Shown piece by piece: positions 38 to 45,640 of a DNA stretch of 46,694 nt. The notes beneath the pieces were generated by a model that saw nothing but the letters and a program-made list of their open reading frames with translations, was not told the origin of the DNA and did not search any database. The position numbers and the translations under genes were made by a program. Positions within the stretch are counted from its first letter, which is position 1; every line of letters starts with the position of its first letter. The DNA is from an uncultured Candidatus Peribacteria bacterium (GTDB lineage: Bacteria > Patescibacteriota > Gracilibacteria > UBA4473), in contig CAYWLU010000003.1 of NCBI GenBank assembly GCA_964459435.1, forward strand, positions 1-46,694, read 5' to 3'.

Positions 38-127
38 TGGCGGAGAGAGCGGGATTCGAACCCGCGGTGAAGTTGCCTCCACACACGCTTTCCAAGCGTG
101 CGCATTCGACCACTCTGCCATCTCTCC
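38..127 (-). tRNA. tRNA-Ser (anticodon GGA), CCA encoded
   Basis: Reverse complement folds as a 90-nt class II cloverleaf: acceptor GGAGAGA/TCTCTCC, anticodon stem CACGC/GCGTG with loop TTGGAAA, long variable arm GTGGAG-GCAA-CTTCAC, T arm GCGGG-TTCGAAT-CCCGC, discriminator G, CCA. Confidence 0.9.
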
Positions 128-335
128 TTCGTCGGTGAGGACTTCGTTGGACTCACGATCCGCCACGGCGGATAGTTCGTTATACTTCGTCTCACCTCCT
201 CTTGTTCGTACGGAGATCTTCAAGCTCATTTAACGCTATTGATTCGCTATACTCGTTAACAGCTATTCGCTTTCAGCTACCCCGTTCTCACATGAAATCT
301 CTATTCATCCTCAGCTACTTCATATTCAGAGTTTT
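128..335. repeat. GC-rich tRNA-flanking repeat, copy A (junction motif, hairpin, one ~115-nt unit plus a partial unit)
   Basis: TCGTCGGTGAGGACTTCG at 129-146, hairpin ATCCGCC..GGCGGAT at 158-173, unit 186-300 matching the units at 15499-15745 (blocks TTCGTCTCACCTCCTCTTGTTCGTACGGA and TTCGCTATAC..CTATTC..GCTACCCC). The only ORF here runs through the tRNA. Confidence 0.6.
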
Positions 336-863: not shown

Positions 864-3800
864 ATGGCGAAAAAAACGCTTCAATTCCCTGCAAAGCTGA
901 CCCCAACCAAAGAAGAAGGTGGTCGGTATTTTTTTACAGATGTAGAAAGAGACTTTCCTTTTCCTGATTTAATTGAGGTTCAAACTAGATCCTACAATTG
1001 GTTTTTAGATAATGGAATTAAGGAGCTTTTAGATGAAATAAATCCTATCGAAGATGCTACTGGGAAAAAATTAAGATTAGAAATTAAGGGTTATGAAATT
1101 GAGGAACCTAAATATAATATTCTAACTTGTAGAGAAAAAGGACTTTCTTTTGAGTCTATTGTACGAGGACATGTGGCCTTAACCAACTTAGAATCTGGGG
1201 AAATTAAAGAGCAAGATGTTTATTTTGGGCAAATTCCTCGAATTACAGAACAGGGAACTTTTATTGTTAATGGAATAGAAAGAATTATTGTTTCACAAAT
1301 TGTGAGAAGTCCTGGGATTTTCTTTGCTAAAAATTCAGCCTTACCAGGGAAATATACTGCCAAAATGATTCCTAAACGAGGAGCTTGGTTAGAGGTAGAG
1401 TCTGATAAAAAAGGATTAATTTGGATTAAGGTTGATAGAAAAAGAAAAATACCGGTAACCATGTTTCTTCGAGCTTTCGGTTATTCTACGGATAAAGAAA
1501 TTTTGGATCTTTTTAAAGACCAAACGAAGGGATTAGAAGAAAATTCTATTACTAAAACTTTAGCTAAGGATGAGTCAGAAAACGAGAAGGATGCTTGGCA
1601 AGGAGTATATAAAAGAATCCGTCCTGGAGATTTAGCTACTCCAGACAATGCTCGAAACTTTATTGAGGATGTGTTTCATAATCATCGAAAATATGATTTA
1701 GGACCTATCGCTCGTTACAAGATTAATAAAAGATTTGATTTGAAAACTAAAGATAATGCAAAAGGACGGATATTTCGGATAGAAGATTTTATTGCTATGA
1801 TTCGTGAAATTTTGATTCTTAATGAAGGTCAGGGAGTGGGTGCAGATGATATAGATCATTTGGCTAATAGAAGAATTAGAGCAGTAGGAGAATTAGTACA
1901 AAATAAATTTAGAGTTGGATTGCTCCGTACAGAACGAATTGTGCGAGATAGAATGTCTATTGTGGATTTAGAAGAAGTAACGCCAACCCAAATTGTTAAC
2001 TGTCGTCCAATTACGGCGGCGATGCATGAATTTTTTGCGAGTTCACAACTTTCGCAGTTTATGGATCAAACAAATCCTTTGGCAGAACTAGAACACAAAC
2101 GAAGAATTTCTGCGATGGGTCCAGGAGGACTATCTCGAGAACGAGCTTCTTTTGAAGTACGAGATGTACATCCTTCTCATTACGGACGAATTTGTCCGGT
2201 AACTACTCCAGAAGGACCAAATATTGGTTTAGTGTTACATTTGGCTTCTTATGCTCGAGTAAATGAATATGGATTCATTGAAACACCTTATAGAACAGTG
2301 GCACATACTTTGCCTAATGATGGTTTGTCTTGTGTTGGTAGAAGAGCGGGAGAAGATATTAAAGATGGTCGAAAGATTATAGTTAAGAAAGGAGAGGAAA
2401 TAAACGACAAACTTGCTAAAGATATCAAGAAATTAAAGGACTATAAAGAGGTGCCTGTTTGGGCTTATATTACGGAAGATGTAAATTATTACGATGCTGA
2501 GGCAGAAAAAGACATGTGTATTGCTCAGGCTAATACAGTTCTTAATGAAAAAGGAGAATTTGTGAAAGAAATGATTTCTGCCAGAGAGAACTATGAACCT
2601 GGTTCTTATGATGAAAATAAAATTACATATATAGATGTTTCTCCAAAACAGTTGATTTCTTTATCTACAGCTCTTATTTCTTTCTTAGAGCATGATGATA
2701 ATACGAGAGCCTTGATGGGGTCTAACATGCAGAGACAAGCAGTGCCTTTAATTAAACCAGAATCCCCAGTTATTGGAACTGGAATGGAACGGATTACTTC
2801 ACATGATCAATGTATTCATGCTCCAGAAGCTGGAGAAATAAAGTATGTGGATGCTAATGAAGTAATATTTGTTGGAAAATCTGGGAAAAAAGTAGTTTTC
2901 CCTATTAGGAATTTTTATAGAACAAATCAATCGACCTGTATCACTCAACGAGCAGTAATAGAATCTGGAGAAAAGGTTAAAAAGGGAGATGTTATAGTAG
3001 ATGGAGCTTCTGTGCAAAATGGAGAATTAGGACTTGGAAGAAACTTGCTTGTGGCTTATATGTCTTGGAGTGGATATAACTTTGAAGATGCCGTGATTGT
3101 TTCTGACCGAGTTGTTAAAGAAGGGCTTTTTGATTCCGTGCATATTGAAAAATATGAATTGGATGTTAGAGATACGAAACTTGGACCGGAAGAGCTAACT
3201 TCAGATATTCCAAATGTAGCGGTGGCAAAACTAAAAGACTTAGACGAACAAGGGTTAGTTAGAATTGGAGCTACGGTATTAGCTGGGGATATTCTAGCAG
3301 GAAAAGTTACTCCAAAAGGAGAAACAGAACTTACAGCAGAAGATAGATTGCTTCGGGCAATTTTTGGAGAAAAAGCTCATGATGTAAAAGATTCTTCGCT
3401 TCGTTTGCCGCGTGGATCTGGAGGAAAAGTAATCGCTGTTTCTATTTTAGATAGATCAGAAGGAGATGATTTACCAACTGGTGTAATTAAAAGGATTCAA
3501 GTAAAAGTAGCTCAATTACGACATTTGGAAGCAGGAGATAAGATGGCTGGAAGACATGGAAATAAAGGTGTTATTTCTCAAGTTATTCCATCAGAAGATA
3601 TGCCTCACATGGAAGATGGAACTCCAGTAGATATTATTCTAAATCCACTTGGTGTTTCTTCTCGAATGAATATTGGTCAGATTTTAGAGACACATTTAGG
3701 AATGGCTGCTAAAAAAATGGGAATTAAAATAGCAACGCCAGTGCTTCATGGAATTAAAGTAGATAAGATTCGAGAGTTTTTGAAGGCTAATGATTTTCCA

Positions 3801-4454
3801 GAGGATGGAAAATTTCAATTATATGATGGAAGAACGGGGGATTCTTTTGACCATCCAACAGTAGTTGGAATAGTTTATATGTTAAAACTAATTCATTTGG
3901 TGGAAGACAAGATGCATGCTAGATCTGTTGGACCATACTCTTTAGTTACTCAACAGCCATTTGGAGGTAAAGCTCAAAATGGAGGGCAGAGATTTGGAGA
4001 AATGGAAGTTTGGGCATTAGAAGCTTATGGAGCCGCTCATATTCTGCAAGAAATGCTGACAATTAAATCAGATGATGTTCATGGTCGAGCAAAAGCTTAT
4101 GAAGCGATTGTGAAAGGAGAACCTATTGAACTTGTTTCTGTTCCAGAATCTTTCAATGTGTTAATTAAAGAACTTCAAGCACTTTGTTTGAAAGTAGAGC
4201 TTTTGCAAGACGGAGAAATTGCTGAAGGAGTTCTTACTCCAGAAAGTAAAGAAGAGGAAGGAGTGGTTAGAGAAAGAGAATTAATAGATGAAGCTGCTGA
4301 AGTTAAAAAAGTAGTTGACGAAGCAGAGGCTTCTAAAATGACTATGGAAGGAGATGAGACCGGAATAGAAGATGAAGATGAAGATGAAGATGATATGGAT
4401 AAAGAAGTGGTGGTAGACGATGCTGAAATAGATGAATTAGAAAAAGAAGAATAA
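864..4454 (+). CDS. rpoB: DNA-directed RNA polymerase beta subunit
   Basis: 1196-aa ORF with beta-subunit blocks NMQRQAVPL, GDKMAGRHGNKGV and GGQRFGEMEVWALEAYGAA; ~70-aa strongly acidic C-terminal tail. Confidence 0.97.
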   Translation: MAKKTLQFPAKLTPTKEEGGRYFFTDVERDFPFPDLIEVQTRSYNWFLDNGIKELLDEINPIEDATGKKLRLEIKGYEIEEPKYNILTCREKGLSFESIVRGHVALTNLESGEIKEQDVYFGQIPRITEQGTFIVNGIERIIVSQIVRSPGIFFAKNSALPGKYTAKMIPKRGAWLEVESDKKGLIWIKVDRKRKIPVTMFLRAFGYSTDKEILDLFKDQTKGLEENSITKTLAKDESENEKDAWQGVYKRIRPGDLATPDNARNFIEDVFHNHRKYDLGPIARYKINKRFDLKTKDNAKGRIFRIEDFIAMIREILILNEGQGVGADDIDHLANRRIRAVGELVQNKFRVGLLRTERIVRDRMSIVDLEEVTPTQIVNCRPITAAMHEFFASSQLSQFMDQTNPLAELEHKRRISAMGPGGLSRERASFEVRDVHPSHYGRICPVTTPEGPNIGLVLHLASYARVNEYGFIETPYRTVAHTLPNDGLSCVGRRAGEDIKDGRKIIVKKGEEINDKLAKDIKKLKDYKEVPVWAYITEDVNYYDAEAEKDMCIAQANTVLNEKGEFVKEMISARENYEPGSYDENKITYIDVSPKQLISLSTALISFLEHDDNTRALMGSNMQRQAVPLIKPESPVIGTGMERITSHDQCIHAPEAGEIKYVDANEVIFVGKSGKKVVFPIRNFYRTNQSTCITQRAVIESGEKVKKGDVIVDGASVQNGELGLGRNLLVAYMSWSGYNFEDAVIVSDRVVKEGLFDSVHIEKYELDVRDTKLGPEELTSDIPNVAVAKLKDLDEQGLVRIGATVLAGDILAGKVTPKGETELTAEDRLLRAIFGEKAHDVKDSSLRLPRGSGGKVIAVSILDRSEGDDLPTGVIKRIQVKVAQLRHLEAGDKMAGRHGNKGVISQVIPSEDMPHMEDGTPVDIILNPLGVSSRMNIGQILETHLGMAAKKMGIKIATPVLHGIKVDKIREFLKANDFPEDGKFQLYDGRTGDSFDHPTVVGIVYMLKLIHLVEDKMHARSVGPYSLVTQQPFGGKAQNGGQRFGEMEVWALEAYGAAHILQEMLTIKSDDVHGRAKAYEAIVKGEPIELVSVPESFNVLIKELQALCLKVELLQDGEIAEGVLTPESKEEEGVVRERELIDEAAEVKKVVDEAEASKMTMEGDETGIEDEDEDEDDMDKEVVVDDAEIDELEKEE

Positions 4455-4467
4455 TAATAGTCTGAAG

Positions 4468-4542
4468 GCGCGTATCGTATAGTGGCTATTACACGGCCTT
4501 GCCAAGGCTGAGATACGGGTTCGACTCCCGTTACGCGCTCCA
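4468..4542 (+). tRNA. tRNA-Gly (anticodon GCC), CCA encoded
   Basis: Acceptor GCGCGTA/TACGCGC, anticodon stem CGGCC/GGCTG with loop TTGCCAA, T arm ACGGG-TTCGACT-CCCGT, discriminator T, CCA. Confidence 0.9.
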
Positions 4543-4725
4543 AAAGAATTCCGATATACCTTTTGGGTATAACGGAATTCTTTTTGTATCGTGATGAGAA
4601 CCCGTATTTTTGCGAAGCAAAAATGGGTTCGATGAGCCGAAGAGAGGAAAGAGAGCTTGCTCTCAATTTCCGAGCGAGGTGAAACGACTAAACGAAGCGA
4701 AGGAGTATTCCCGTTACGCGCTCCA
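4543..4725 (+). mobile_element. ~165-nt mini-element (CIME/MITE-like) ending in a 17-nt direct repeat of the tRNA-Gly 3' end
   Basis: TCCCGTTACGCGCTCCA at 4709-4725 is identical to 4526-4542. GGGTTCGA at 4625-4632 repeats the T-stem/T-loop start. The block at 4633-4708 is ~83% identical to 14850-14923 (reverse strand). Confidence 0.45.
4546..4585 (+). terminator. intrinsic terminator after tRNA-Gly
   Basis: GAATTCCG/CGGAATTC outer stem plus TATACC/GGTATA inner stem, followed by TTTTT. Confidence 0.75.
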
Positions 4726-5971: not shown

Positions 5972-5987
5972 TTATATTGTAATATAA
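5972..5987. repeat. AT palindrome copy (TTATATTGTAATATAA, 15/16)
   Basis: One of 9 copies of TTATATTATAATATAA; lies 107 nt upstream of the argH start. Confidence 0.8.
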
Positions 5988-12248: not shown

Positions 12249-12270
12249 TTATTTTTAGTTTTGTGTATTA

Positions 12271-12298
12271 TTGACAGAATATTACGAATAAATATTAT
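12271..12298 (+). promoter_or_regulatory. near-consensus sigma-70 promoter (TTGACA-N16-TATTAT)
   Basis: TTGACA at 12271-12276, TATTAT at 12293-12298; an ATG follows 6 nt later. Confidence 0.6.
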
Positions 12299-12304
12299 AA
12301 AACT

Positions 12305-12427
12305 ATGGAAGGAGATATGTGTCGAACAAATATTATTTTTGAAACTTTCTTAAAAGAAGGGGGTACTCCTGCATATTTAAATTATCTAACATGGTGGAAT
12401 AAGTTATTATGGTGCATAACAAATTAA
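12305..12427 (+). CDS. 40-codon small ORF (MEGDMCRTNIIFETFLKEGGTPAYLNYLTWWNKLLWCITN); candidate peptide substrate or leader peptide
   Basis: Below the 60-aa cutoff of the ORF track. Leaderless geometry from the promoter; a second ATG at 12317 is preceded by GGAGAT. Aromatic/Cys-rich C-terminus with tandem TGG TGG. Confidence 0.4.
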   Translation: MEGDMCRTNIIFETFLKEGGTPAYLNYLTWWNKLLWCITN

Positions 12428-12464
12428 TATTTAGCTTTAAAAGCTAAGAAATGTGCACCAAGAA

Positions 12465-12489
12465 GCATCTGAATTACAGATGTTTTTTT
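12465..12489 (+). terminator. intrinsic terminator between the small ORF and the radical SAM gene
   Basis: GCATCTG-AATTA-CAGATGT stem-loop followed by T7, 20 nt before the ATG at 12510. Confidence 0.65.
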
Positions 12490-12509
12490 ATTTTTAACTT
12501 ATTTTTATA

Positions 12510-14546
12510 ATGAAAAATTTATTACCAGAAAATGCGGGATCCGAATTAATTGAGATCCCTGTCGCAGAAACAAAATACTTAGATGTTCGAGGGAATCTAG
12601 AGGAAGTTCCTACTAGTCTAAGAAATTTATTGATTTCCTTGGAAGATAGTTCAGCTGATTCAGTTGAGTTGGACACAGATTACAGGAATGAATTTCTGAC
12701 ACTTGCCGGAAATGAAATATATGAAGCTAAATTATCTGAACTCATAGATTCTGAAAGTACTTCATATACTATAGCTGAATTTGATGAAAGCTATTTAGGT
12801 CATCATTCTCTCATAATAGTTAGACAACTTCTTCCATATCTAGAATCTATTGGAATTAGTGGTACGGTGTCTGATAACGGGGGGGAGCTGAACTTTCCTA
12901 CAGTAGGATATATAGCCTTTGATATTGATGGAAAAATTCAAATATGTGATGATTCCCGCCTTATAGACAAAGATATCTTTCATTATTTGTCTTGCCACAT
13001 AAGTCAGGATCTTGCTGTTGTAGTAAGGCGAAATAATCAGTTTATATATGCAAGTGATATATCAAGATTTGAAAAAACACCAAAAAGCAAAGAAGGAAAG
13101 AATGCTTTTTTAGGGGCAGATATTATTGAATTTCACTCAGTAGCTCCGAATTTCGGCTCTCAACTTGGATATCTATTTCAAAAAATAATTGAATCTTTTG
13201 AAACAGGTAAACTTGGTATGCTAGTTGTGGATCTTTATGGGCAAAATATTTTTAAAGACGAAGAAGGAAATGCAATACATCGTTTTGAAAGAGATAAATT
13301 TATTCCTTTAAAAGGAGATAATGGTGAATTATTAGGATTTATAGGAGTTGCCGATGTGTTTTTTCAAAATGTTGAAGAAAAACTTAGTCCATACGAAGGA
13401 GGTGAATATTCTATTACTCCGATAACCCAGTTGGATATACAAACAAAGGATTTTTCTAAGAGAGTTGCTGAAATCACTAGTGACAATCTTGTAGAAGAAC
13501 TTCTCGATGAGGGGATAACAAGTGAACGGAAAATACAAATAGTTCAGAAAATATTAAATAATAAAGATCAATATCAGGATGAAGTTTTAGAAATATCAGC
13601 AAAATTGAACAGAGAGCGTTTTGGTGGACGACTTAATTTATATGGGATTAGTTATATTTCGGATAAATGTGTTAATGATTGTACATATTGTGGACACCAT
13701 GCGCAGTTAAGAACAGATAGGGATACTTTAACTGAAGAAGAAATGAGGCTGGATTTCAGTGTTGTTTTGAATAATAAACCAGATGAATTTTGTATTCTTG
13801 CAGGAGAATATCCGGGAGGAATAGAAGATTATTGTCAGGCGCTAAGAGTCCTTAATACCATTGATGATGAAACGGGAAATAGTCTTCAACGCATATCATT
13901 AAATGTTGCGCCATTATCCGAAGATGGTTTTAAGACATTAGTTGCTGCTCATTCAGGAAAAATTCCACTTCAATATAGATTATTTCAGGAAACTTATGAT
14001 CAAGAGCAATATGCAAAATATCATAAAAAAGGACCAAAAAAGGATTTTCAGTTTAGAGCGGAGGCACAAGATAGAGCCTTGAAAGCTGGATTTGATGAAG
14101 TTGGTTTGGGGGTTTTAATGGGTCTAAATACTAGAAATAATCCCTATCTTAATTTCGGTCACGATTTTGAGATATTATCTCTTATAAGACATGCTTATAA
14201 ACTAAAGGAAGATCATGGAAAATTTCCATCTGGAATTTCGATTCCGAGACATCAGCCAGTATCAGGATATTCTTTTGAAACACCTAATCCTATAGATGAT
14301 GACTTGTATGTTTTTTATCATGCATTATTGAAATTAGTTTTACCAGAGACGAAATTAATAATTACAAGCAGAGAAACACAGGAGTTAATTCAAAGGGTTG
14401 AGCCTTATGTGAATATAAGAGATTTAGCTCCGCGTCCTGGAGTTGGTGGTAATTATAGATCTAGCACAAACTTCCAAAATGAATTGGGAGATGCACGAAG
14501 TGCTGCAGAAATAATTAAAGACTTAAAAGAAAGACTTCTTTTATAG
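12510..14546 (+). CDS. radical SAM enzyme: ThiH/HydG/NosL-type (aromatic amino-acid lyase family) C-terminal domain fused to an unknown ~370-aa N-terminal region
   Basis: SDKCVNDCTYCGHH (CX3CX2C), FQETYDQEQYAKYHKKGPKKDF, VGLGVLMGL and IITSRETQ parallel ThiH blocks. No motif recognised in residues 1-320. Confidence 0.75.
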   Translation: MKNLLPENAGSELIEIPVAETKYLDVRGNLEEVPTSLRNLLISLEDSSADSVELDTDYRNEFLTLAGNEIYEAKLSELIDSESTSYTIAEFDESYLGHHSLIIVRQLLPYLESIGISGTVSDNGGELNFPTVGYIAFDIDGKIQICDDSRLIDKDIFHYLSCHISQDLAVVVRRNNQFIYASDISRFEKTPKSKEGKNAFLGADIIEFHSVAPNFGSQLGYLFQKIIESFETGKLGMLVVDLYGQNIFKDEEGNAIHRFERDKFIPLKGDNGELLGFIGVADVFFQNVEEKLSPYEGGEYSITPITQLDIQTKDFSKRVAEITSDNLVEELLDEGITSERKIQIVQKILNNKDQYQDEVLEISAKLNRERFGGRLNLYGISYISDKCVNDCTYCGHHAQLRTDRDTLTEEEMRLDFSVVLNNKPDEFCILAGEYPGGIEDYCQALRVLNTIDDETGNSLQRISLNVAPLSEDGFKTLVAAHSGKIPLQYRLFQETYDQEQYAKYHKKGPKKDFQFRAEAQDRALKAGFDEVGLGVLMGLNTRNNPYLNFGHDFEILSLIRHAYKLKEDHGKFPSGISIPRHQPVSGYSFETPNPIDDDLYVFYHALLKLVLPETKLIITSRETQELIQRVEPYVNIRDLAPRPGVGGNYRSSTNFQNELGDARSAAEIIKDLKERLLL

Positions 14547-14830
14547 TTTTTGTACTAGAAAGCCCTGGGTAAGGCTTAATAAACTGCCCAGAGGTGATGT
14601 TTAATTTATGTTAGTTCTCTTAATAATTATAAAAAACCTGCTACACCACAAGGGGGAACTGCGGTCTTGAAAAATTAAATATTACAAAATAAGCCCCTCG
14701 ACTTTGCTCGGGGCACTCATTCGCCTGCTTTCTTTTACAAATGTATAACTTCCGATGATAGTGCTAGTGGTCGAAGACCATGAGCGACCGACCCTTCGGC
14801 CTTGAGCTATGTCGAAAGGAGGGAGTCGAA

Positions 14831-15013
14831 TGGTGGAGGTGGCGAGAATACTTCCTCACTTCGTTCGGTCGTTTCACCTCATTCAGAAATAGAGAGCGAG
14901 CTCTCTTTCTTCATTTCGGCTCATTGAACTCTGCGAGTTAAATTTCACTTCCTGCTACGCAGGAATAAAAAACAGGCCTATCCCCGCAAGGGGGACATGC
15001 CTATTTTTTTAAC
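14831..15013 (-). mobile_element. ~165-nt mini-element downstream of ssrA ending in a 19-nt direct repeat of the tmRNA 3' end
   Basis: TGGTGGAGGTGGCGAGAAT at 14831-14849 is identical to 15014-15032. A T-arm fragment CGCAGAGTTCAAT (reverse complement of 14924-14936) precedes a block (14850-14923) homologous to 4633-4708. Confidence 0.45.
14966..15002 (-). terminator. intrinsic terminator after tmRNA
   Basis: On the minus strand, AGGCATGTCCCC-CTTGC-GGGGATAGGCCT followed by TTTTTT. Confidence 0.7.
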
Positions 15014-15439
15014 TGGTGGAGGTGGCGAGAATTGAACTCGCGTCCAAAGAGGAAATCTATTTTTATCTACGAAGCCTAGTTCAGTTGGTTATTTCTCTTG
15101 ATTAGAACTGAACAAAAAACAAAAGAAGATGACCGAATATTTTCCTTAAAAAGTTGGTCAAACTTTATAAGTAAGGATCCTTAATTTTAGAAAGTAAAAG
15201 ACTATGGATCAACATCTAATACTTCCTGGCGAGCCAAAAGGCTCAAGCCAAGTTAGGCGTAAGCATAAGCTACTGGTGCTGGAGCAAAAGCTCTGGCAAC
15301 ATTTTTAGCAAAATTGCTTACACGTGCAACAAATAAATTTTTTGCATTTAAGTTTGTTCATCGGATATACCGGCAGATGAACGTGCCGAACTCGCAAAAA
15401 ATAAATTTCTAAATCTCTCTGTCAAAGCCGAGCACCCCC
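15014..15439 (-). ncRNA. ssrA: tmRNA (one-piece), 426 nt
   Basis: 5' GGGGGTG pairs with 3' CACCTCC-A-CCA, including a G3:U pair; GGCTTTGACAG near the 5' end; T arm GCGAG-TTCAATT-CTCGC. The tag frame ends GCT TAT GCT TAC GCC TAA (..PVAYAYA). Confidence 0.9.
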
Positions 15440-15745
15440 GTTGTCGTCGCCAGAGGACTACACTATCTCGCAAATAGCTTTGCTATTGGCTCGATTTGTT
15501 TCGTCCTCGCTCCTCTTCGCTCAAATGGAGGTCTTCGTCCTCACTTTACGGAATTCTTCGCTACACTCAGAATTCCTATTCGGACTCAGCTACCCCATTT
15601 TCGCGGTTTCAAAGAATAATTATTTCGTTTTCGCTCCTCTCACTCACACGGACTACTCGGCTTTATAACGAGATTTTCTTGCTACACGTGAAAATCTCTA
15701 TTCAGCCTGCGTTACCCCATGTTCGTGTGAAAATCTTAAAAACTA
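15440..15745. repeat. GC-rich tmRNA-flanking repeat, copy B (junction motif, hairpin, two tandem ~125-nt units)
   Basis: TCGTCGCCAGAGGACTAC at 15444-15461, hairpin AATAGC-TTT-GCTATT at 15473-15487, units at 15499-15623 and 15624-15745 sharing two conserved blocks. Confidence 0.65.
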
Positions 15746-15749
15746 TTTG

Positions 15750-15765
15750 TTATATTATAATATAA
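15750..15765. repeat. AT palindrome copy (TTATATTATAATATAA, 16/16; 18-bp palindrome with flanking G/C)
   Basis: Exact copy between the repeat units and the rel stop codon. Confidence 0.85.
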
Positions 15766-15806: not shown

Positions 15807-17864
15807 CTATGAAATTTTACTTTGTGTCAATTGAGAAGAGGGGTTGAGTTCTTTAACTGAAAAAACATTAGGAATTGTTTTTAAATCGTTTAAGAGTTTA
15901 CTTACTTCAGACAAAGTATTAGATTCTACTATAAATTTCCAATTTACTATTCGGCGATTATTCTTGTCATAAGAATGGTTTAGACTGAATTCACGAAGAA
16001 AATTTAAACCGTGATGAGCAATAATAGTTGTGTAATCACGAGAGAGTCCGATTCTGTCAAAAGCATAAATTTCTATTTTGTTTTCTGTGTAAAAATTAGC
16101 TTCTAGAAATTTAGTTGGATCTAAGTGATTAAGATGTTTGCAATTCTCTCTATGGATAGTGAATACTAAGCCACGAGATTTGTATCCGATAATACTTTGA
16201 CCATATTGTGGTTTACAACAATTAGCCAGACGGTAAGGAATATTCCTTTCTCCGCCAATAATGATTTTGATGTTTTGGTCTTTTTTATCTTGATTTAGAG
16301 GAATATGACTTCTTTTTTTTCTTGCTTCAGATAGTAATGATGATTTAATAATTTCTGTTGGAGCTTCTGTGTGTTTTACGCGTCCCTTATTAATTTCTAG
16401 TTTAATATTGCTTCGAGCAGAAGATGATTTAGCAAAATTAAGCCAAGCAGGATTTGGTGTGCGTCCTTTTTTAGTTAAGATGTCCACAATTTCTCCATTT
16501 TGTAGTTGGTAATCCAATGGCTTAATAGCACCATTAACTTTAGCACCAATACAGTTATTACCAATATTAGAATGAATAGCGTAGGCAAAATCTATCGGAG
16601 TACTTCCTAGCGGAAGATTTTCTATGTCTCCTTGAGGAGTAAAAACATAAACGCTATCAGCAAAAACAGAATTGGAAATTTCTTCGAAGAATTTTTCTGG
16701 AGAAGCATTTTCTTGGACTATAAGTTCTTTTGGGAACCAGTTCGTCCGTTGTAGATAATTTTGATCAAAGTGAGAGTGTCCCATCTTTTTATAAGCCCAG
16801 TGACTTGCCGGACCGAATTTAGCGTCGATATTCATTTCGGCGGTTCTTATTTGAATTTCAGTAGGAATTTCATTTCCGCCTACTCCTAGTAAAGTAGTAT
16901 GAAGACTGCGATAACCGTTAGACTTAGAGACAGCAATGTAGTCTTTAAACCGATTGGGAATTGGTTTCCAAGTAGAATGTAGTAAGCCCAGGGCTTGATA
17001 ACAATCTTCTTTGTTTGAAACAATTACTCGGAAACCAAGAAGATCATATATTTCAGAAACAGAAGTTAAGTTTTTCAGTTTCATTTTATTGTAAACGGAT
17101 GCAATGTTTTTTTGTCGACCTTGAATTTCTATTATCTTTAATTTTGATTTTGTAAATATTTTAAGAATTTCTTGTTTAGATTTGTCTATAGATTCCAATT
17201 TTTCTTTTTTTAAATCGGAAATTTCTTGGTTTAATTGCTTGCAAATTTGAGGTTTTAATTGGCATAGACAAAGATCTTCTATTTCGTTTTTAAATCTAAA
17301 TAAACCGAATTTAGCTGCCACGGGCGCATAAATATTTTGTGATTCGTGAGCAATAAAATCGGCTTTTCCTTTGGGAAGATGTTTTAAGGTTTGTAAGTTG
17401 TGGATTCGATCGGCCAACTTTACAAAAATTACTCGTATATCTTGAGAAACAGCCACAAATAATTTTTGGATATTTTCAAATTGTTGTGAACTATCGTGTT
17501 TTTTTAGTAAATTAACTTTGGAAATTTTTTGGACTCCTTCGCATAAGAATCTAACTTTAGCACCAAATTTTTCTTCTATTTCTTGAGCAGTAATTTCCGT
17601 TTCCTCGAGAACATCGTGCAATAAACAGGCTTGGACGGTTTCTAAATCTGGTAAGATAGATAGAAGAATTTTAGTTGCTGCTACTCCATGACTAAAGAAA
17701 GGTTCCCCAGAGGCTCTTTTTTGTCCGTGATGAGAATCTTTTCCGAATTTATAAACTTCACGCAAAGAATTTTCCTCCTTTTCTCCAAAGTTAGGATGAT
17801 ACTTTTGGATAGATATAACAATATCTTCCAGAGCTTTACTGAAATTGTAATTTTGAGAGTTCAT
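15807..17864 (-). CDS. rel: bifunctional (p)ppGpp synthetase/hydrolase, RelA/SpoT family
   Basis: HD domain LLHDVLEETE, synthetase block GYRSLHTTL, and TGS- and ACT-like C-terminal regions; 685 aa. Confidence 0.9.
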   Translation of the reverse strand: MNSQNYNFSKALEDIVISIQKYHPNFGEKEENSLREVYKFGKDSHHGQKRASGEPFFSHGVAATKILLSILPDLETVQACLLHDVLEETEITAQEIEEKFGAKVRFLCEGVQKISKVNLLKKHDSSQQFENIQKLFVAVSQDIRVIFVKLADRIHNLQTLKHLPKGKADFIAHESQNIYAPVAAKFGLFRFKNEIEDLCLCQLKPQICKQLNQEISDLKKEKLESIDKSKQEILKIFTKSKLKIIEIQGRQKNIASVYNKMKLKNLTSVSEIYDLLGFRVIVSNKEDCYQALGLLHSTWKPIPNRFKDYIAVSKSNGYRSLHTTLLGVGGNEIPTEIQIRTAEMNIDAKFGPASHWAYKKMGHSHFDQNYLQRTNWFPKELIVQENASPEKFFEEISNSVFADSVYVFTPQGDIENLPLGSTPIDFAYAIHSNIGNNCIGAKVNGAIKPLDYQLQNGEIVDILTKKGRTPNPAWLNFAKSSSARSNIKLEINKGRVKHTEAPTEIIKSSLLSEARKKRSHIPLNQDKKDQNIKIIIGGERNIPYRLANCCKPQYGQSIIGYKSRGLVFTIHRENCKHLNHLDPTKFLEANFYTENKIEIYAFDRIGLSRDYTTIIAHHGLNFLREFSLNHSYDKNNRRIVNWKFIVESNTLSEVSKLLNDLKTIPNVFSVKELNPSSQLTQSKIS

Positions 17865-18908: not shown

Positions 18909-18995
18909 CAAGAACAGCTAATAACTAAAGACTAAAGACTAAAGACTAATTCATAATTGCAATCCACTTTTAGTTGATTAGAATCTTAGAGTTAC

Positions 18996-25841: not shown

Positions 25842-26957
25842 ATGAACCAAAATAATATAGACGGTGCTAATTTACACAAAACATATGATGTGTTGCTAGC
25901 TTCTTTTGCCCAGAAAAATGGTGCTTCTAGAGGGAGAAAGCATAAAGAACTACCAGATCCAGAGAGACTACCTTTTCAGAGAGATAGAAGCAGAATTATT
26001 CATACTAATTCTTTTCGTCGTTTAAAAGGAAAGATGCAAGTGGTGTCGCCGCATAAAAGCGATCATTTTAGAAATAGGTTGAGTCATACGCTAGAGGTTG
26101 CCCAAATTGCGAGAGATTTAGCTCGTTCACTTTGTCTTAATGAAGATTTAGCAGAAGCGGTGGCATTGGCTCATGATCTTGGACATCCACCGTTTGGTCA
26201 TTCTGGGGAAAAAGCTTTGGATCTAAAAATGAGAGAACAAGGTTCTTCTTTTGAACACAACAAGCAATCGCTTCGTATTGTAGAAATTTTTGAGTCTCGT
26301 TATCTGGATTTTCCCGGACTTAATCTGACTTACGAAGTATTGGAAGGAATTCAAAAACATGAGACATTTTTTGATCGTCCACAGGGAAATAAGATTTTTA
26401 CCCCACATTTAGAAGCACAATTGGTGGATATTGCGGATGAAATTGCTTATTTATCTGCGGATTTAGAAGATGGATTGAGAGGCGATTTTTTTGAAATAAA
26501 AGATTTATTAGGTTTAGTTATACCAGGGCAGGCGATAGGAGAATTAAAGGGAGACGCTAAATTCCATCGTCCAGCAATTATTAGAAGAATTATTAGGAAT
26601 TTTTTGGTTAAAATCGTGATGGATACAAAAGAAAACTTGAACAAAAAAAGTGTTCAATCTTTGCAGGATGTGCAAAACTTAAAGACTAAGATTGTTAGTT
26701 TTGATGAAGAGTGGTTAATTGGGTTTAAGCAACTGCGTCAGTTCCTTTGGGACAGATATTATTCTGCTCCAGAAATTTTAGCAGTAAATATTAGAGGGCA
26801 GGAAATACTAGCAAATATTTTTGATTTCTTAATAAAAAATCCTCAGCGCATTCCTGATAATTTCATGGTGCAAGAAAAAGATTCGATTAGAAGAATCTGT
26901 GACTATATTGCGGGAATGACTGATGAATTTGCTGAGAAATTTATAGCTAATGTATAA
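25842..26957 (+). CDS. dgt: dGTP triphosphohydrolase-like HD-domain protein
   Basis: FQRDRSRIIH, RLSHTLEVAQIARDLA, HDLGHPPFGH. The ATG at 25842 is preferred over the TTG at 25836. Confidence 0.85.
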   Translation: MNQNNIDGANLHKTYDVLLASFAQKNGASRGRKHKELPDPERLPFQRDRSRIIHTNSFRRLKGKMQVVSPHKSDHFRNRLSHTLEVAQIARDLARSLCLNEDLAEAVALAHDLGHPPFGHSGEKALDLKMREQGSSFEHNKQSLRIVEIFESRYLDFPGLNLTYEVLEGIQKHETFFDRPQGNKIFTPHLEAQLVDIADEIAYLSADLEDGLRGDFFEIKDLLGLVIPGQAIGELKGDAKFHRPAIIRRIIRNFLVKIVMDTKENLNKKSVQSLQDVQNLKTKIVSFDEEWLIGFKQLRQFLWDRYYSAPEILAVNIRGQEILANIFDFLIKNPQRIPDNFMVQEKDSIRRICDYIAGMTDEFAEKFIANV

Positions 26958-27177
26958 GGTATCATGTATCAAGTATTATGTATAAAAAAATCAGAATATA
27001 AATTCTAAATTACTATTTTTTGAGCGCTGAGCTTTAAATTCAAAATTTATATTTAATTTAACTTCGTATTAAAGCTTGAAATTGATATTTTATACTTAAT
27101 ACATAATACGAAATACATTCTACATTATTTTTTTTTGCTTGCTTAAACTCTTTTTATAAGCAAAATATCGGTCATAA

Positions 27178-28518: not shown

Positions 28519-28791
28519 ATGGCACACAAAAAAGCTGGTGGATCGTCCAAAAACAATAGAGACTCACAATCAAAACGTCGAGGAGTGAAACGTTTTGGTG
28601 GACAGACTGTGTCTGCTGGTGAAATTATTGTTCGTCAAAAAGGAACTAAATTTCGTCCCGGAGAAAATGTTGGTTTGGGGAGAGATTTTACTTTATTTGC
28701 TGAAAAAGCAGGGAAAGTCGCTTTTACAGAAAAAGCAGTAACTAGATTTGATGGACGAAGATACGAAAAGAAGTTTGTGAATGTGGGATAA
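28519..28791 (+). CDS. rpmA: 50S ribosomal protein L27
   Basis: [31 protein letters not shown]. Confidence 0.92.
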
Positions 28792-29044
28792 TTTTCAATC
28801 TACAATCTACAATCTTCAATTTTCAAACAAAAAGGGGAGTATTTTTGTTATATTATAATATACATTAGCTATTAGCGGTTGGCTTTTAGTTTTTTGAGAA
28901 AGTTCGATTCGTTACGACGAATCGAATTCTAGGAATGATTATTTTAAAAAATTAGACAAACCCATTGTTCATAATTAAAATGACACTTGTTAGGCTTCAT
29001 TGTTCGTAATTGATAATTGAAGATTTATAATTGATAATTAAATA
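28792..29044. repeat. mosaic intergenic element with inverted terminal modules, AT palindrome and a perfect 10-bp hairpin
   Basis: AATCTTCAATT at 28811-28821 versus AATTGAAGATT at ~29014-29024; palindrome at 28848-28862 (15/16); TTCGATTCGT-TACG-ACGAATCGAA at ~28895-28918. Confidence 0.55.
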
Positions 29045-37532: not shown

Positions 37533-37716
37533 CTTTAGGCTCTAAACCCTATATAAACAATTTTAAATTTTTAATTTTTAATTTTTAAATAATTTCTAAT
37601 ATCCTAATTTTTAAAAATTAGAATCTATTACAACTTTTAAGTTATTTATAGCATATTATAATATAATACCAGTCCTTAATTGAAGATTGATAATTGCAGA
37701 TTGAAGATTGATAACT
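37533..37716. repeat. mosaic intergenic element, inverted homologue of 44283-44436
   Basis: Shares the modules CTAAACCCT, (AATTTTT)n, the AT palindrome (37653-37666) and (ATTGAAG/ATTGATA)n with the lspA-upstream spacer, in opposite orientation. Confidence 0.55.
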
Positions 37717-40220: not shown

Positions 40221-40404
40221 TGGAGGATTAATTTTCAATAAAAAATTGAGTCGCCAGTCGCTAGTCATTAGTCGTTAGTTTTTGATGGTTATTTTTTATT
40301 AGATTTTTAAAGACTAAAGACTAATGACTTATGACTAAAGGCTAAATTAATTTGACTTTTGTCTTTCGCACCATACAATTCACGAGAATTTTTAGAGCTT
40401 ATTA

Positions 40405-41778: not shown

Positions 41779-41836
41779 AAGAAAATTACAATCTTCAATA
41801 TCTAAGTTCTAAATTCTAAGCTCTAAGTTCTAAACT

Positions 41837-44242: not shown

Positions 44243-44440
44243 TGTAGAATGTAGAATGATGAATGGAGAATAAATAATCTTCAATTATCAATCTTCAATT
44301 TTCAATAAATCGAATATTATATTATAATGTAATAGAGCTTAGGGTTTAGAACTTAGAACTTAGAAAATAACAAAATACAAATTTAAAAAATTAAGATATT
44401 ATTTACAAAATTAAAAATTAAAAATTAAAAATTTTCAACA
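44243..44440. repeat. mosaic intergenic element: 28 heptads in a single register, with an embedded AT palindrome
   Basis: 44243-44438 parses as TGTAGAA TGTAGAA TGATGAA TGGAGAA TAAATAA TCTTCAA TTATCAA TCTTCAA TTTTCAA ... TTAAAAA x3 TTTTCAA. Palindrome TTATATTATAATGTAA at 44317-44332. Confidence 0.7.
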
Positions 44441-45395: not shown

Positions 45396-45472
45396 GGGCG
45401 GTTAGCTCAGCTGGCTAGAGCGCCTGCTTGACTTGCAGGAGGCCACAGGTTCGAGTCCTGTACCGCCCACCA
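45396..45472 (+). tRNA. tRNA-Val (anticodon GAC), CCA encoded, T at position 37
   Basis: Acceptor GGGCGGT/ACCGCCC, anticodon stem CCTGC/GCAGG with loop TTGACTT, T arm ACAGG-TTCGAGT-CCTGT, discriminator A, CCA. Confidence 0.85.
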
Positions 45473-45640
45473 TCGTCGCTGGATGACTTCATTAACTTCG
45501 TCCGCCAATGGCGGACTTGTTTTATTTCGTGATCGCTCCTCTCACTCACATGGAGGCTTTCGGATTCCTTAGTCGGAGCATGTATGTATCACATGCTCTG
45601 AAACGTTTCGAACCAGGTTAATATAAGTCTCCGACATGAG
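45473..45640. repeat. GC-rich tRNA-flanking repeat, copy C
   Basis: TCGTCGCTGGATGACTTC at 45473-45490, hairpin GTCCGCC-AAT-GGCGGAC at 45500-45516, block TTCGTGATCGCTCCTCTCACTCACATGGA at 45526-45554, hairpin GAGCATGT..ACATGCTC at 45576-45598. Confidence 0.6.

Follow-up and report, generated by a model that had tools for sequence, protein, structure and literature searches.

An undescribed, multi-copy element and probable structured leader RNA at tRNA and tmRNA genes of Gracilibacteria-class bacteria

The window analysed here is a stretch of 46,694 nucleotides (nt) from an uncultured Candidatus Peribacteria bacterium (assembly GCA_964459435.1, contig CAYWLU010000003.1, positions 1 to 46,694). 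Directly before its transfer-messenger RNA (tmRNA) gene, ssrA, lies a repeat element of about 170 nt, which was given the working name E and which has further copies at tRNA genes. E is a structured RNA read on the tRNA-sense strand, which is the minus strand in the window. It is hitherto undescribed, occurs in many copies, is deeply conserved and is probably a leader RNA in Gracilibacteria-class bacteria. The GC content is 0.35 in the window and 0.44 in the E region at ssrA (15440-15745). Gracilibacteria are a lineage of the candidate phyla radiation (CPR), and genetic code 25 has been described for them (PMC6851277). The RelA/SpoT protein encoded at 15807-17864 (minus strand) has its closest named relatives in Candidatus Gracilibacteria; an exact match to it was not on record, and homologues were used in its place.

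Fold and covariation of E

Seventeen E copies from several contigs were aligned (A2/A3), and pair counts were made on the MAFFT alignment. The RNAalifold consensus of these copies reached -40.1 kcal/mol on the tRNA-sense strand versus -18.8 kcal/mol on the other strand, and all 17 folded better on the sense strand, by 7-21 kcal/mol. The covariation analysis proposed in a preliminary description of this stretch was performed on the sense consensus, which holds 40 pairs, and double compensatory changes were found in 28 of them. Paired cells amounted to 95.0%, versus 76.2% with shuffled partners and 33-43% with partners slid by 1-3 columns; double-change cells numbered 155 versus 55 in shuffles, and the covariation score was 0.596 versus 0.245. 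The observed values were reached by none of 500 shuffles. A tally from the pair tables gave about 33 G-U cells on the sense strand versus 13 A-C cells, the latter being those that read as G-U on the opposite strand.

The long irregular hairpin that forms domain 1 has an invariant GGGGUAGCUGA, an apical loop GAGUGUAGCGAG, conserved purine-rich internal loops and a GAAUAG / AAAUGAG internal loop adjoining a helix. A conserved GAGGAG stretch links it to the tRNA-proximal domain 2, whose stem is made up of the parts called the junction motif and block 1 in the preliminary description and encloses a hairpin, P4. The stem of domain 2 occurs in covarying variants (GAGGAC/GUCCUC, GAAGAC/GUCUUC, GAUGAC/GUCAUC and GAUCAC/GUGAUC). 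P4 is free in sequence, with compensatory changes in 8 of its 8 pairs, which bears out the earlier remark that this hairpin keeps its place while its sequence changes. The element finishes in a single-stranded CGACGA tail that stops 0-4 nt before tRNA +1. The TTCGT pentamers of the plus strand are the complement of CGAA motifs that stand at fixed aligned positions in the E RNA, and TTCG occurs 9 times in the 306 nt of 15440-15745 versus 1.6 expected. The preliminary description had placed the element in antisense sequence orientation at ssrA and tRNA-Ser; this orientation has to be inverted, the strand written out there being the non-folding one.

No credible open reading frame (ORF) was found in 15440-15745 under code 11 or code 25, as the preliminary description had also concluded. 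The E sense strand has stops in every frame, with a longest stop-free run of 72 codons under code 25 and 25 under code 11; long stop-free frames occur only on the pyrimidine-rich plus strand, and 1-nt indels separate the copies. A protein-coding gene in either code was therefore rejected, there being no conserved open frame. A programmable guide, such as an omega RNA or bridge RNA, was likewise rejected: one P4 variant stands beside tRNA-Ser, tRNA-Lys, tRNA-Cys and tRNA-Gly, so the variable parts do not follow the target.

Rfam 15 was searched with all 4227 models, including ribozymes, leaders, omega RNAs and RtT. No match to E was obtained on either strand at gathering thresholds, and none at an E-value of 1 or below or of 10 or below for the window and four other E-bearing loci. 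Full-text literature searches returned no description of E, in agreement with the preliminary statement that no described element has this layout.

Copies of E in the window and in related genomes

Four stable-RNA genes are present in the window, on which ARAGORN and Rfam agree. A covariance model for E, called R1, was built; it is not to be confused with R, the name used here for a separate family found 3' of tRNA and tmRNA genes. The RNA genes and the E copies beside them are as follows.

38-127, minus strand: tRNA-Ser(GGA) (ARAGORN, Rfam)
128-300, minus strand: complete E, ending 0 nt before tRNA-Ser +1 (R1 159 bits)
296-334, minus strand: extra partial block 2, corresponding to the 5' half of domain 1, on the distal side of the tRNA-Ser unit
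4468-4542, plus strand: tRNA-Gly (ARAGORN, Rfam)
15014-15439, minus strand: tmRNA gene ssrA, its 5' end adjoined by E (ARAGORN; Rfam RF00023, 94.7 bits)
15440-15442, minus strand: 3-nt spacer, sense AAC, from the E tail to tmRNA +1
15443-15613, minus strand: complete proximal E, ssrA leader (R1 186.9 bits, E-value 1e-48, full length)
15446-15513, minus strand: domain 2 of the proximal copy, starting in the purine-rich GAGGAG linker
15470-15490, minus strand: P4, variable-sequence hairpin of the proximal copy
15518-15605, minus strand: domain 1 of the proximal copy, long irregular hairpin (covariation-supported structure)
15624-15735, minus strand: partial distal E with domain 1 and linker/block 1, without P4 and junction (R1 59.5 bits, E-value 2e-14)
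15736-15749, minus strand: A/T-rich 5' flank of the distal unit, sense AGTTTTTAAGATTT
15750-15765: palindrome TTATATTATAATATAA, promoter-like, with TATAAT in both directions (consensus scan)
45396-45472, plus strand: tRNA-Val(GAC) (ARAGORN, Rfam)
45472-45596, minus strand: partial E, mainly domain 2, with its sense strand opposite tRNA-Val and its tail at the CCA end (R1 49.9 bits)

The approximately 300 nt between tmRNA +1 (15439) and the palindrome at 15750 are accounted for by one complete and one partial E. The 3' tail of the proximal copy reads CGACGAC. Distal tandem units comparable to the partial one were found in four related loci (L050, L066, L040 and L029; retrieved loci are given L numbers throughout), and a motif, TCTTTAAA, is repeated at the outer end of most E copies. 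With a hidden Markov model (HMM) of three copies and a filter-free covariance scan, E was located in the window only at 128-300, 15443-15613, 15624-15735 and 45472-45596, and all four sites adjoin tRNA or tmRNA ends, which upholds the tie to these genes asserted earlier. The block 1 pattern gave 3 exact matches in the window versus 0.00 expected, and the block 2 pattern gave 4 matches with up to 3 mismatches versus 0.09 expected. The sequence features catalogued in the preliminary description were all recovered, namely the junction motif (15444-15461, and again at 129-146 and 45473-45490), the hairpin (15473-15487), two units at about 15499-15745, the unit at 186-300 and block 1 at 45526-45554, as was its placement of the element 5' of tRNA-Ser and ssrA and 3' of tRNA-Val. 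The junction motif and the hairpin belong to the natural unit, which measures about 170 nt.

Related loci were gathered in three ways. A scan of species-representative genomes with the block 1 pattern returned 10 loci, a scan of metagenome contigs with the block 2 pattern returned 55, and a series of ssrA loci was retrieved through RelA homologues, in which E was not used. Most census loci were thus retrieved by an E motif and are biased; the unbiased sample consists of the window and the ssrA series only. Two of the 10 block 1 genome loci were Gracilibacteria, and the true copy among them is a tRNA-Leu leader (L011). The second (L012, 1620-1950), from a metagenome-assembled genome of 62% GC labelled Gracilibacteria, has two block 1-like motifs and a weak R1 match of 22 bits in front of a dnaJ-like gene, away from any tRNA, and may be a diverged E relative or chance. 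The other eight were set aside as apparent chance matches, three of them without nearby tRNA genes. Among the 55 metagenome loci, R1 identified true copies in 22, several of them from the assembly of the closest relative, FLOH01; the remainder were chance. No sign of a phage origin was seen: three exact motif matches in IMG/VR viral contigs were not confirmed by R1, and none lies near a tRNA.

Half of the R1 matches (19 of 38) have their end between -3 and +3 nt from the point where a tRNA or tmRNA gene on the same strand begins. The genes so preceded are those for Leu, Val, Gln, Ser, Gly, Glu, Cys, Met, Thr, Arg, Lys and Tyr tRNAs and tmRNA. Six matches are inverted, on the opposite strand and abutting the CCA end (the tRNA-Val of the window, Leu, Arg, Ala and two tmRNA genes); about seven others lie upstream of another unit as the second of a tandem, and five reach contig ends. 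Counted by gene, E stands before +1 in 19 of 42 tRNA/tmRNA genes on related Gracilibacteria contigs. A single E unit forms the whole spacer between a tRNA-Leu gene and tRNA-Met +1 in L044 and L067.

The orthologous ssrA and tRNA loci, whose comparison the preliminary description had suggested, carry E or lack it depending on the relative. In the ssrA series, E was found directly at tmRNA +1 in L075/L076 (RelA 56% identical to that of the window), L077/L078 (57%) and L079 (58%), and these copies show new compensatory stem variants. A reduced E stands at tmRNA +1 in L082 (RelA 50%, source name Peregrinibacteria), where domain 2, GAGGAG and the tail are kept and domain 1 is replaced by a small hairpin. 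The closer relatives L001 (RelA 87%), L002-L004 (83%) and L005 (79%) have no E in their ssrA leaders. RelA synteny was lost in L080 and L081, which are hence uninformative for this comparison. In L005 the palindrome lies about 10 nt from tmRNA +1, so that E represents about 305 nt inserted into a native leader of a few nt. At the tRNA-Gly gene, the spacer after rpoB is 14 nt in the window; in L019 it is filled by heptamer repeats and an E ending at +1.

E copies are mosaics of exchangeable domain variants. Domain 1 of the window ssrA copy was 100% identical to that of a tRNA-Arg copy (L050) and 98% to that of a tRNA-Gln copy (L017), and its domain 2 was 67% and 55% identical, respectively; the same domain 2 was 88% identical to those of tRNA-Tyr (L066) and tRNA-Glu (L036) copies. 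Orthologous tRNA-Lys copies of L051 and L069 agreed at 91% in domain 2 and 72% in domain 1. Mosaic copies together with the presence/absence differences show that exchange among loci is frequent. The E junctions match mature-tRNA ends, not a common DNA motif, and are compatible with selection in very short leaders or with copying at the RNA level. Four contigs (L002, L018, L032 and L039) end within E copies. The family breaks assemblies at tRNA loci and should be masked or annotated in CPR genomes.

Family R and the 3' side of tRNA and tmRNA genes

The preliminary description had regarded a "mini-element" at tRNA-Gly as related to the repeats at ssrA. This relationship was not sustained, because the HMMs of E and R do not cross-match and the sequence after tRNA-Gly belongs to R, which carries a duplication of 17-20 nt of the tRNA 3' end; the two are accordingly treated as separate families. 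The E HMM and covariance model gave no match to the tRNA-Gly R unit, and homology of E and R was rejected, with only short purine-rich motifs in common. Two R units lie in the window.

4543-4725, plus strand: R unit after tRNA-Gly, with a 17-nt copy of the tRNA-Gly 3' end at 4709-4725
14831-15013, minus strand: R unit 3' of the tmRNA gene, ending in a 19-nt copy of that gene's 3' end (14831-14849)

Both units contain a terminator hairpin, a GGAT.AGAACC...GGTTCGA hairpin (GATGAGAACCC...GGGTTCGA at tRNA-Gly) and a purine-rich stretch. R units measure about 160-185 nt and end in an exact copy, 17-20 nt long, of the 3' end of the upstream gene, and by its position this copy would run from the T-loop to CCA. 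A census of 45 tRNA/tmRNA genes by ARAGORN, 42 of them in loci taken as Gracilibacteria, found R at 13 of the 45, about 155-185 nt downstream, one gene having two units in tandem. R was also present in L019, L029, L044, L049, L050, L065, L066, L067 and L069. The R site 3' of tRNA-Ser is empty in the window and filled in L019.

R was compared with RtT, reported as a product of tRNA primary transcript processing (10.1101/2024.07.17.603846). The E. coli tyrT repeats (RF00391) are 178-nt units with a GGATGAGAAGC...GGTTCGAC hairpin and GAGT followed by a 19-nt copy of the tRNA-Tyr 3' end, and they have in common with the window R units the layout of a GGATGAGAA.C...GGTTCGA hairpin, a purine-rich stretch, and GAGT with a tRNA 3'-end copy of 17-19 nt. 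A 3' unit ending in a copy of the tRNA 3' terminus is thus found in RtT and R and not in E. In the RF00391 search, an R unit of L050 gave 25.8 bits (E-value 0.61, cut-off 45), which was not reproducible, and the window R units gave no match; in the reverse direction, the R HMM matched the E. coli tyrT-tyrV spacer weakly (E-value 1e-3). E resembles the 178-bp tyrT repeats in being a repeated unit of about 170-180 nt in a tRNA operon, but it lies 5' of the tRNA, has no tRNA fragment, folds differently and does not match RF00391. The R units suggest that the long-unexplained repeat architecture of E. coli tyrT/RtT is widespread.

Further observations were made around the two genes that carry R in the window. 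The rpoB gene (864-4454) encodes an acidic tail rich in Asp and Glu, and 14 nt downstream of it is tRNA-Gly, not rpoC. The tags predicted by ARAGORN for tmRNA are unusually long, at 25-30 amino acids, and end in AYAYA (window, L001-L005 and L033; predicted frame). A weak match to a permuted-tmRNA model at 14942-15041 (minus strand, 22 bits, E-value 0.035), was not reproducible; in it the tmRNA 3' end is paired with a GGAAGUG that lies within R, some 70 nt further downstream, and it is probably a by-product of acceptor-like sequences in R. Between an arginine-deiminase-like gene and ssrA, the window has a segment (12249-14830) with a gene for a radical-SAM protein of 678 amino acids (12510-14546) and about 280 nt. 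The arginine-deiminase-like gene adjoins ssrA in L001 and L005, which marks the radical-SAM segment as an insertion 3' of ssrA; no third copy of the tmRNA 3' end bounding it was found. A large serine recombinase gene and a tyrosine integrase gene occur near ssrA in relatives, the former directly after the tmRNA 3' end (L003, 3121-4740) and the latter about 400 nt past it (L075, 13068-13880), and in L002 and L003, with identical RelA, the sequences diverge right after the tmRNA CCA. This arrangement suggests island integration at ssrA in relatives.

Expression, origin and relation to known systems

Candidate promoters were assigned by consensus matching. A minus-strand promoter-like site (ATAACA-16 nt-TATAAT, ending at 15754) lies just beyond the distal E at ssrA, and another (TTGCCA-16 nt-TAGAAT, 391 to 364, minus strand) just outside the tRNA-Ser E. 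The consensus scan gave no promoter-like site within E or between E and the gene at ssrA or tRNA-Ser, and no intrinsic terminator was found on the sense strand of E at either of these copies. The palindrome TTATATTATAATATAA is found, with at most 2 mismatches, at 9 places in the window versus 0.13 expected, always outside the listed ORFs (16-nt sites at 5972, 15750, 18893, 23297, 28848, 29654, 34552, 37651 and 44317), and it stands just past the outer end of E in L019, L050, L017, L032 and L051. It is frequent in related loci too and probably serves this lineage as a symmetric promoter element. Heptamers of varied sequence, repeated in short tandem arrays, were seen at many sites between the listed ORFs of the window, for example at 18924-18949, 26950-26986, 28790-28826, 37559-37588, 40308-40346, 41801-41833, 44276-44306 and 44407-44433; in related loci, similar heptamer repeats lie between the promoter-like palindrome and E. 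At tRNA-Val, where no minus-strand promoter was found near E, P4 (45500-45516) followed by TTGTTTTATT scores as an intrinsic terminator on the plus strand, and the other inverted copies likewise have P4 and then a T-rich stretch. The inverted copies would probably have a secondary role as tRNA terminators.

We consider it rather probable that E is an RNA module transcribed as the 5' leader of tRNA and tmRNA genes, that RNase P releases it, and that it moves and recombines among tRNA loci. Transcription would start at the promoter-like palindrome outside E and continue through E into the tRNA. The 5' ends of tmRNA and tRNAs are made by RNase P, and a cut at tRNA +1 would free E with a defined 3' end. 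RNase P RNA is retained, in diverged forms, in CPR bacteria (PMC8172020). In a tRNA-E-tRNA arrangement, 3' processing of the upstream tRNA would also set the 5' end of E, which would make it a case of tRNA punctuation. The direct same-strand adjacency of a tRNA-punctuated RNA was found in 19 copies and four independent ssrA lineages. The family would spread and be homogenised among tRNA loci by recombination or another insertion route, and the leader site would be safe for a persisting repeat because the leader is discarded. Several points weigh against this account. That E is transcribed, is released by RNase P and accumulates as an RNA is inferred, promoters were assigned by consensus matching only, and folded single-stranded DNA tolerates G-T pairs, so that covariation alone is no proof of use as RNA. 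E is dispensable at individual loci and therefore not required for tRNA maturation; six copies run opposite to the strand of the adjacent tRNA and are covered only through the secondary terminator role; and the census was mostly fished with E motifs.

Four other explanations were weighed. The preliminary description had taken the TTCGT/ACGAA pentamers for integrase arm-type sites or protein-binding arrays, which would have been left by elements integrated at tRNA genes; TTCG(T) is indeed over-represented, tRNA and tmRNA genes are classical integration sites, and the adjacent R units bear att-like duplications of tRNA 3' ends. This mechanism was mistaken because the pentamers belong to an RNA fold and are not arm sites: compensatory changes on one strand with G-U pairs are unexpected in duplex protein-binding sites, the CGAA motifs fall at the same aligned RNA positions, the first 14 nt of the adjacent tRNA were not duplicated within 700 nt upstream of any gene scanned, and most E copies are at the tRNA 5' end, while known tRNA-targeting integrases recombine in the 3' half. 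No recombinase was found among the window ORFs flanking the four E copies, scanned against Pfam, and the recombinase genes by ssrA in L003 and L075 do not track E. The explanation is largely refuted and has only the faintest chance of being correct. Those recombinase genes, the serine recombinase of L003 and the tyrosine integrase of L075, could be cited for an element folded as single-stranded DNA, either a non-autonomous IS200/IS605 or REP/REPIN relative or an attC-like site, moved by an HUH transposase or a hairpin-recognising integrase. Structure conserved above sequence, a strand-specific fold and the location of all four window copies on one strand would suit such an element. However, orientation follows the adjacent tRNA (two L017 copies about 700 bp apart are opposed, and each is turned towards its own tRNA), neither terminal inverted repeats nor a target duplication nor a fixed target motif of 4-5 nt was found and the left flanks are unrelated tRNA ends, a 40-pair two-domain fold with purine-rich internal loops exceeds simple REP or attC hairpins, and the recombinase genes are not linked to the presence of E, the ssrA 5' end of L003 being without it. 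We see a slim chance for this proposal. A miniature inverted-repeat transposable element was rejected, since the two ends of E, the CGACGA tail and the A/T-rich TCTTTAAA flank, do not form inverted repeats and no duplication of the flanks is seen.

E could also be a cis-acting leader needed for tRNA expression: a cassette for antitermination or folding, comparable to the boxA/B/C leader of rRNA operons, an enhancer of RNase P, or a ribozyme that cleaves itself and thereby generates the tRNA 5' end. Its fixed position immediately 5' of +1, the deepest conservation in domain 2, GAGGAG and the CGACGA tail, and a hairpin that is conserved in structure and not in sequence, like boxB, are in keeping with this. 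Yet orthologous tRNA and ssrA genes manage without E, it is present at only about half of the tRNA genes sampled, its sense strand has no intrinsic terminator to regulate, no Rfam ribozyme or leader family matches even at an E-value of 10 or below, and E contains no pyrimidine-rich partner for the purine-rich tail that would put a cleavage site in a helix; we regard a required cis-acting leader as distinctly unlikely. Alternatively, E, and perhaps R, could be a previously unseen bacterial RNA-level mobile element that hitch-hikes on tRNA maturation. RNase P-freed E would be joined to the termini of other mature tRNAs and then copied into the genome, either through reverse transcription in which the enzyme switches templates end to end or through RNA ligation and subsequent reverse transcription, and the conserved fold would serve its own propagation, not the host. 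If true, this would explain junctions at +1, just past CCA-76 and within the T-loop. The DNA junctions do fall at mature-RNA landmarks: 19 copies at tRNA +1, 6 inverted copies at the base after CCA-76, and R with the last 17-20 nt of the tRNA, most often 18, which by position would start in the T-loop. The 5' sequences of the target tRNAs are unrelated, and the presence/absence polymorphism and mosaicism agree as well. Against it, no reverse transcriptase or ligase gene was seen near the copies, although no systematic search was made, and no poly-A tract, target-site duplication or other retro-insertion scar was found around E. As native leaders are only a few nt long, selection alone could confine surviving insertions to the base before +1, and the long retention at ssrA across deep lineages fits a function at least equally. 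We judge RNA-level mobility unlikely.

Comparison with known systems was extended to three groups beyond RtT. RNAs matured by tRNA processing include the bacterial 3'ETS-leuZ, MALAT1/mascRNA, plant tRNA-small nucleolar RNA genes and the tRNA punctuation of mitochondria. In these, as in E, an RNA that is not itself a tRNA immediately adjoins a tRNA or a structure resembling one, so that a cut by RNase P or RNase Z would define the RNA end; they are single loci, whereas E is multi-copy at many tRNA genes and tmRNA and has its own 40-pair fold. ERIC, the Neisseria Correia elements, pneumococcal BOX and RUP, and REP/REPIN are transcribed intergenic repeat families which, like E, are short, non-coding, multi-copy, structured, strain-variable, mosaic and often co-transcribed with their neighbours. 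E differs from them in lacking terminal inverted repeats and target duplication, in being confined to tRNA/tmRNA ends with near single-nucleotide precision, and in its extensive RNA-type covariation. Elements that home to tRNA genes comprise integrase-borne islands, found at tRNA/tmRNA 3' ends, as well as Ty3 and TRE5, which lie upstream of tRNA genes in eukaryotes. For them, as for E, tRNA genes are safe sites in compact genomes, and upstream insertion spares the gene. E has no encoded enzyme, att duplication or long terminal repeat; integrases target the tRNA 3' half and not +1, and Ty3 and TRE5 need the eukaryotic RNA polymerase III machinery.

Nothing described so far corresponds to a conserved folded module that ssrA and a wide variety of tRNA genes have in common in their leaders. 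Structured RNAs supported by so much covariation are usually functional, and E is multi-copy in the genomes, of about 1 Mb, of uncultivated code-25 CPR bacteria, whose RNA biology is almost unknown. E may be an abundant RNA produced by tRNA punctuation, a platform that influences tRNA or tmRNA expression, or a selfish RNA sheltering in a discarded leader.

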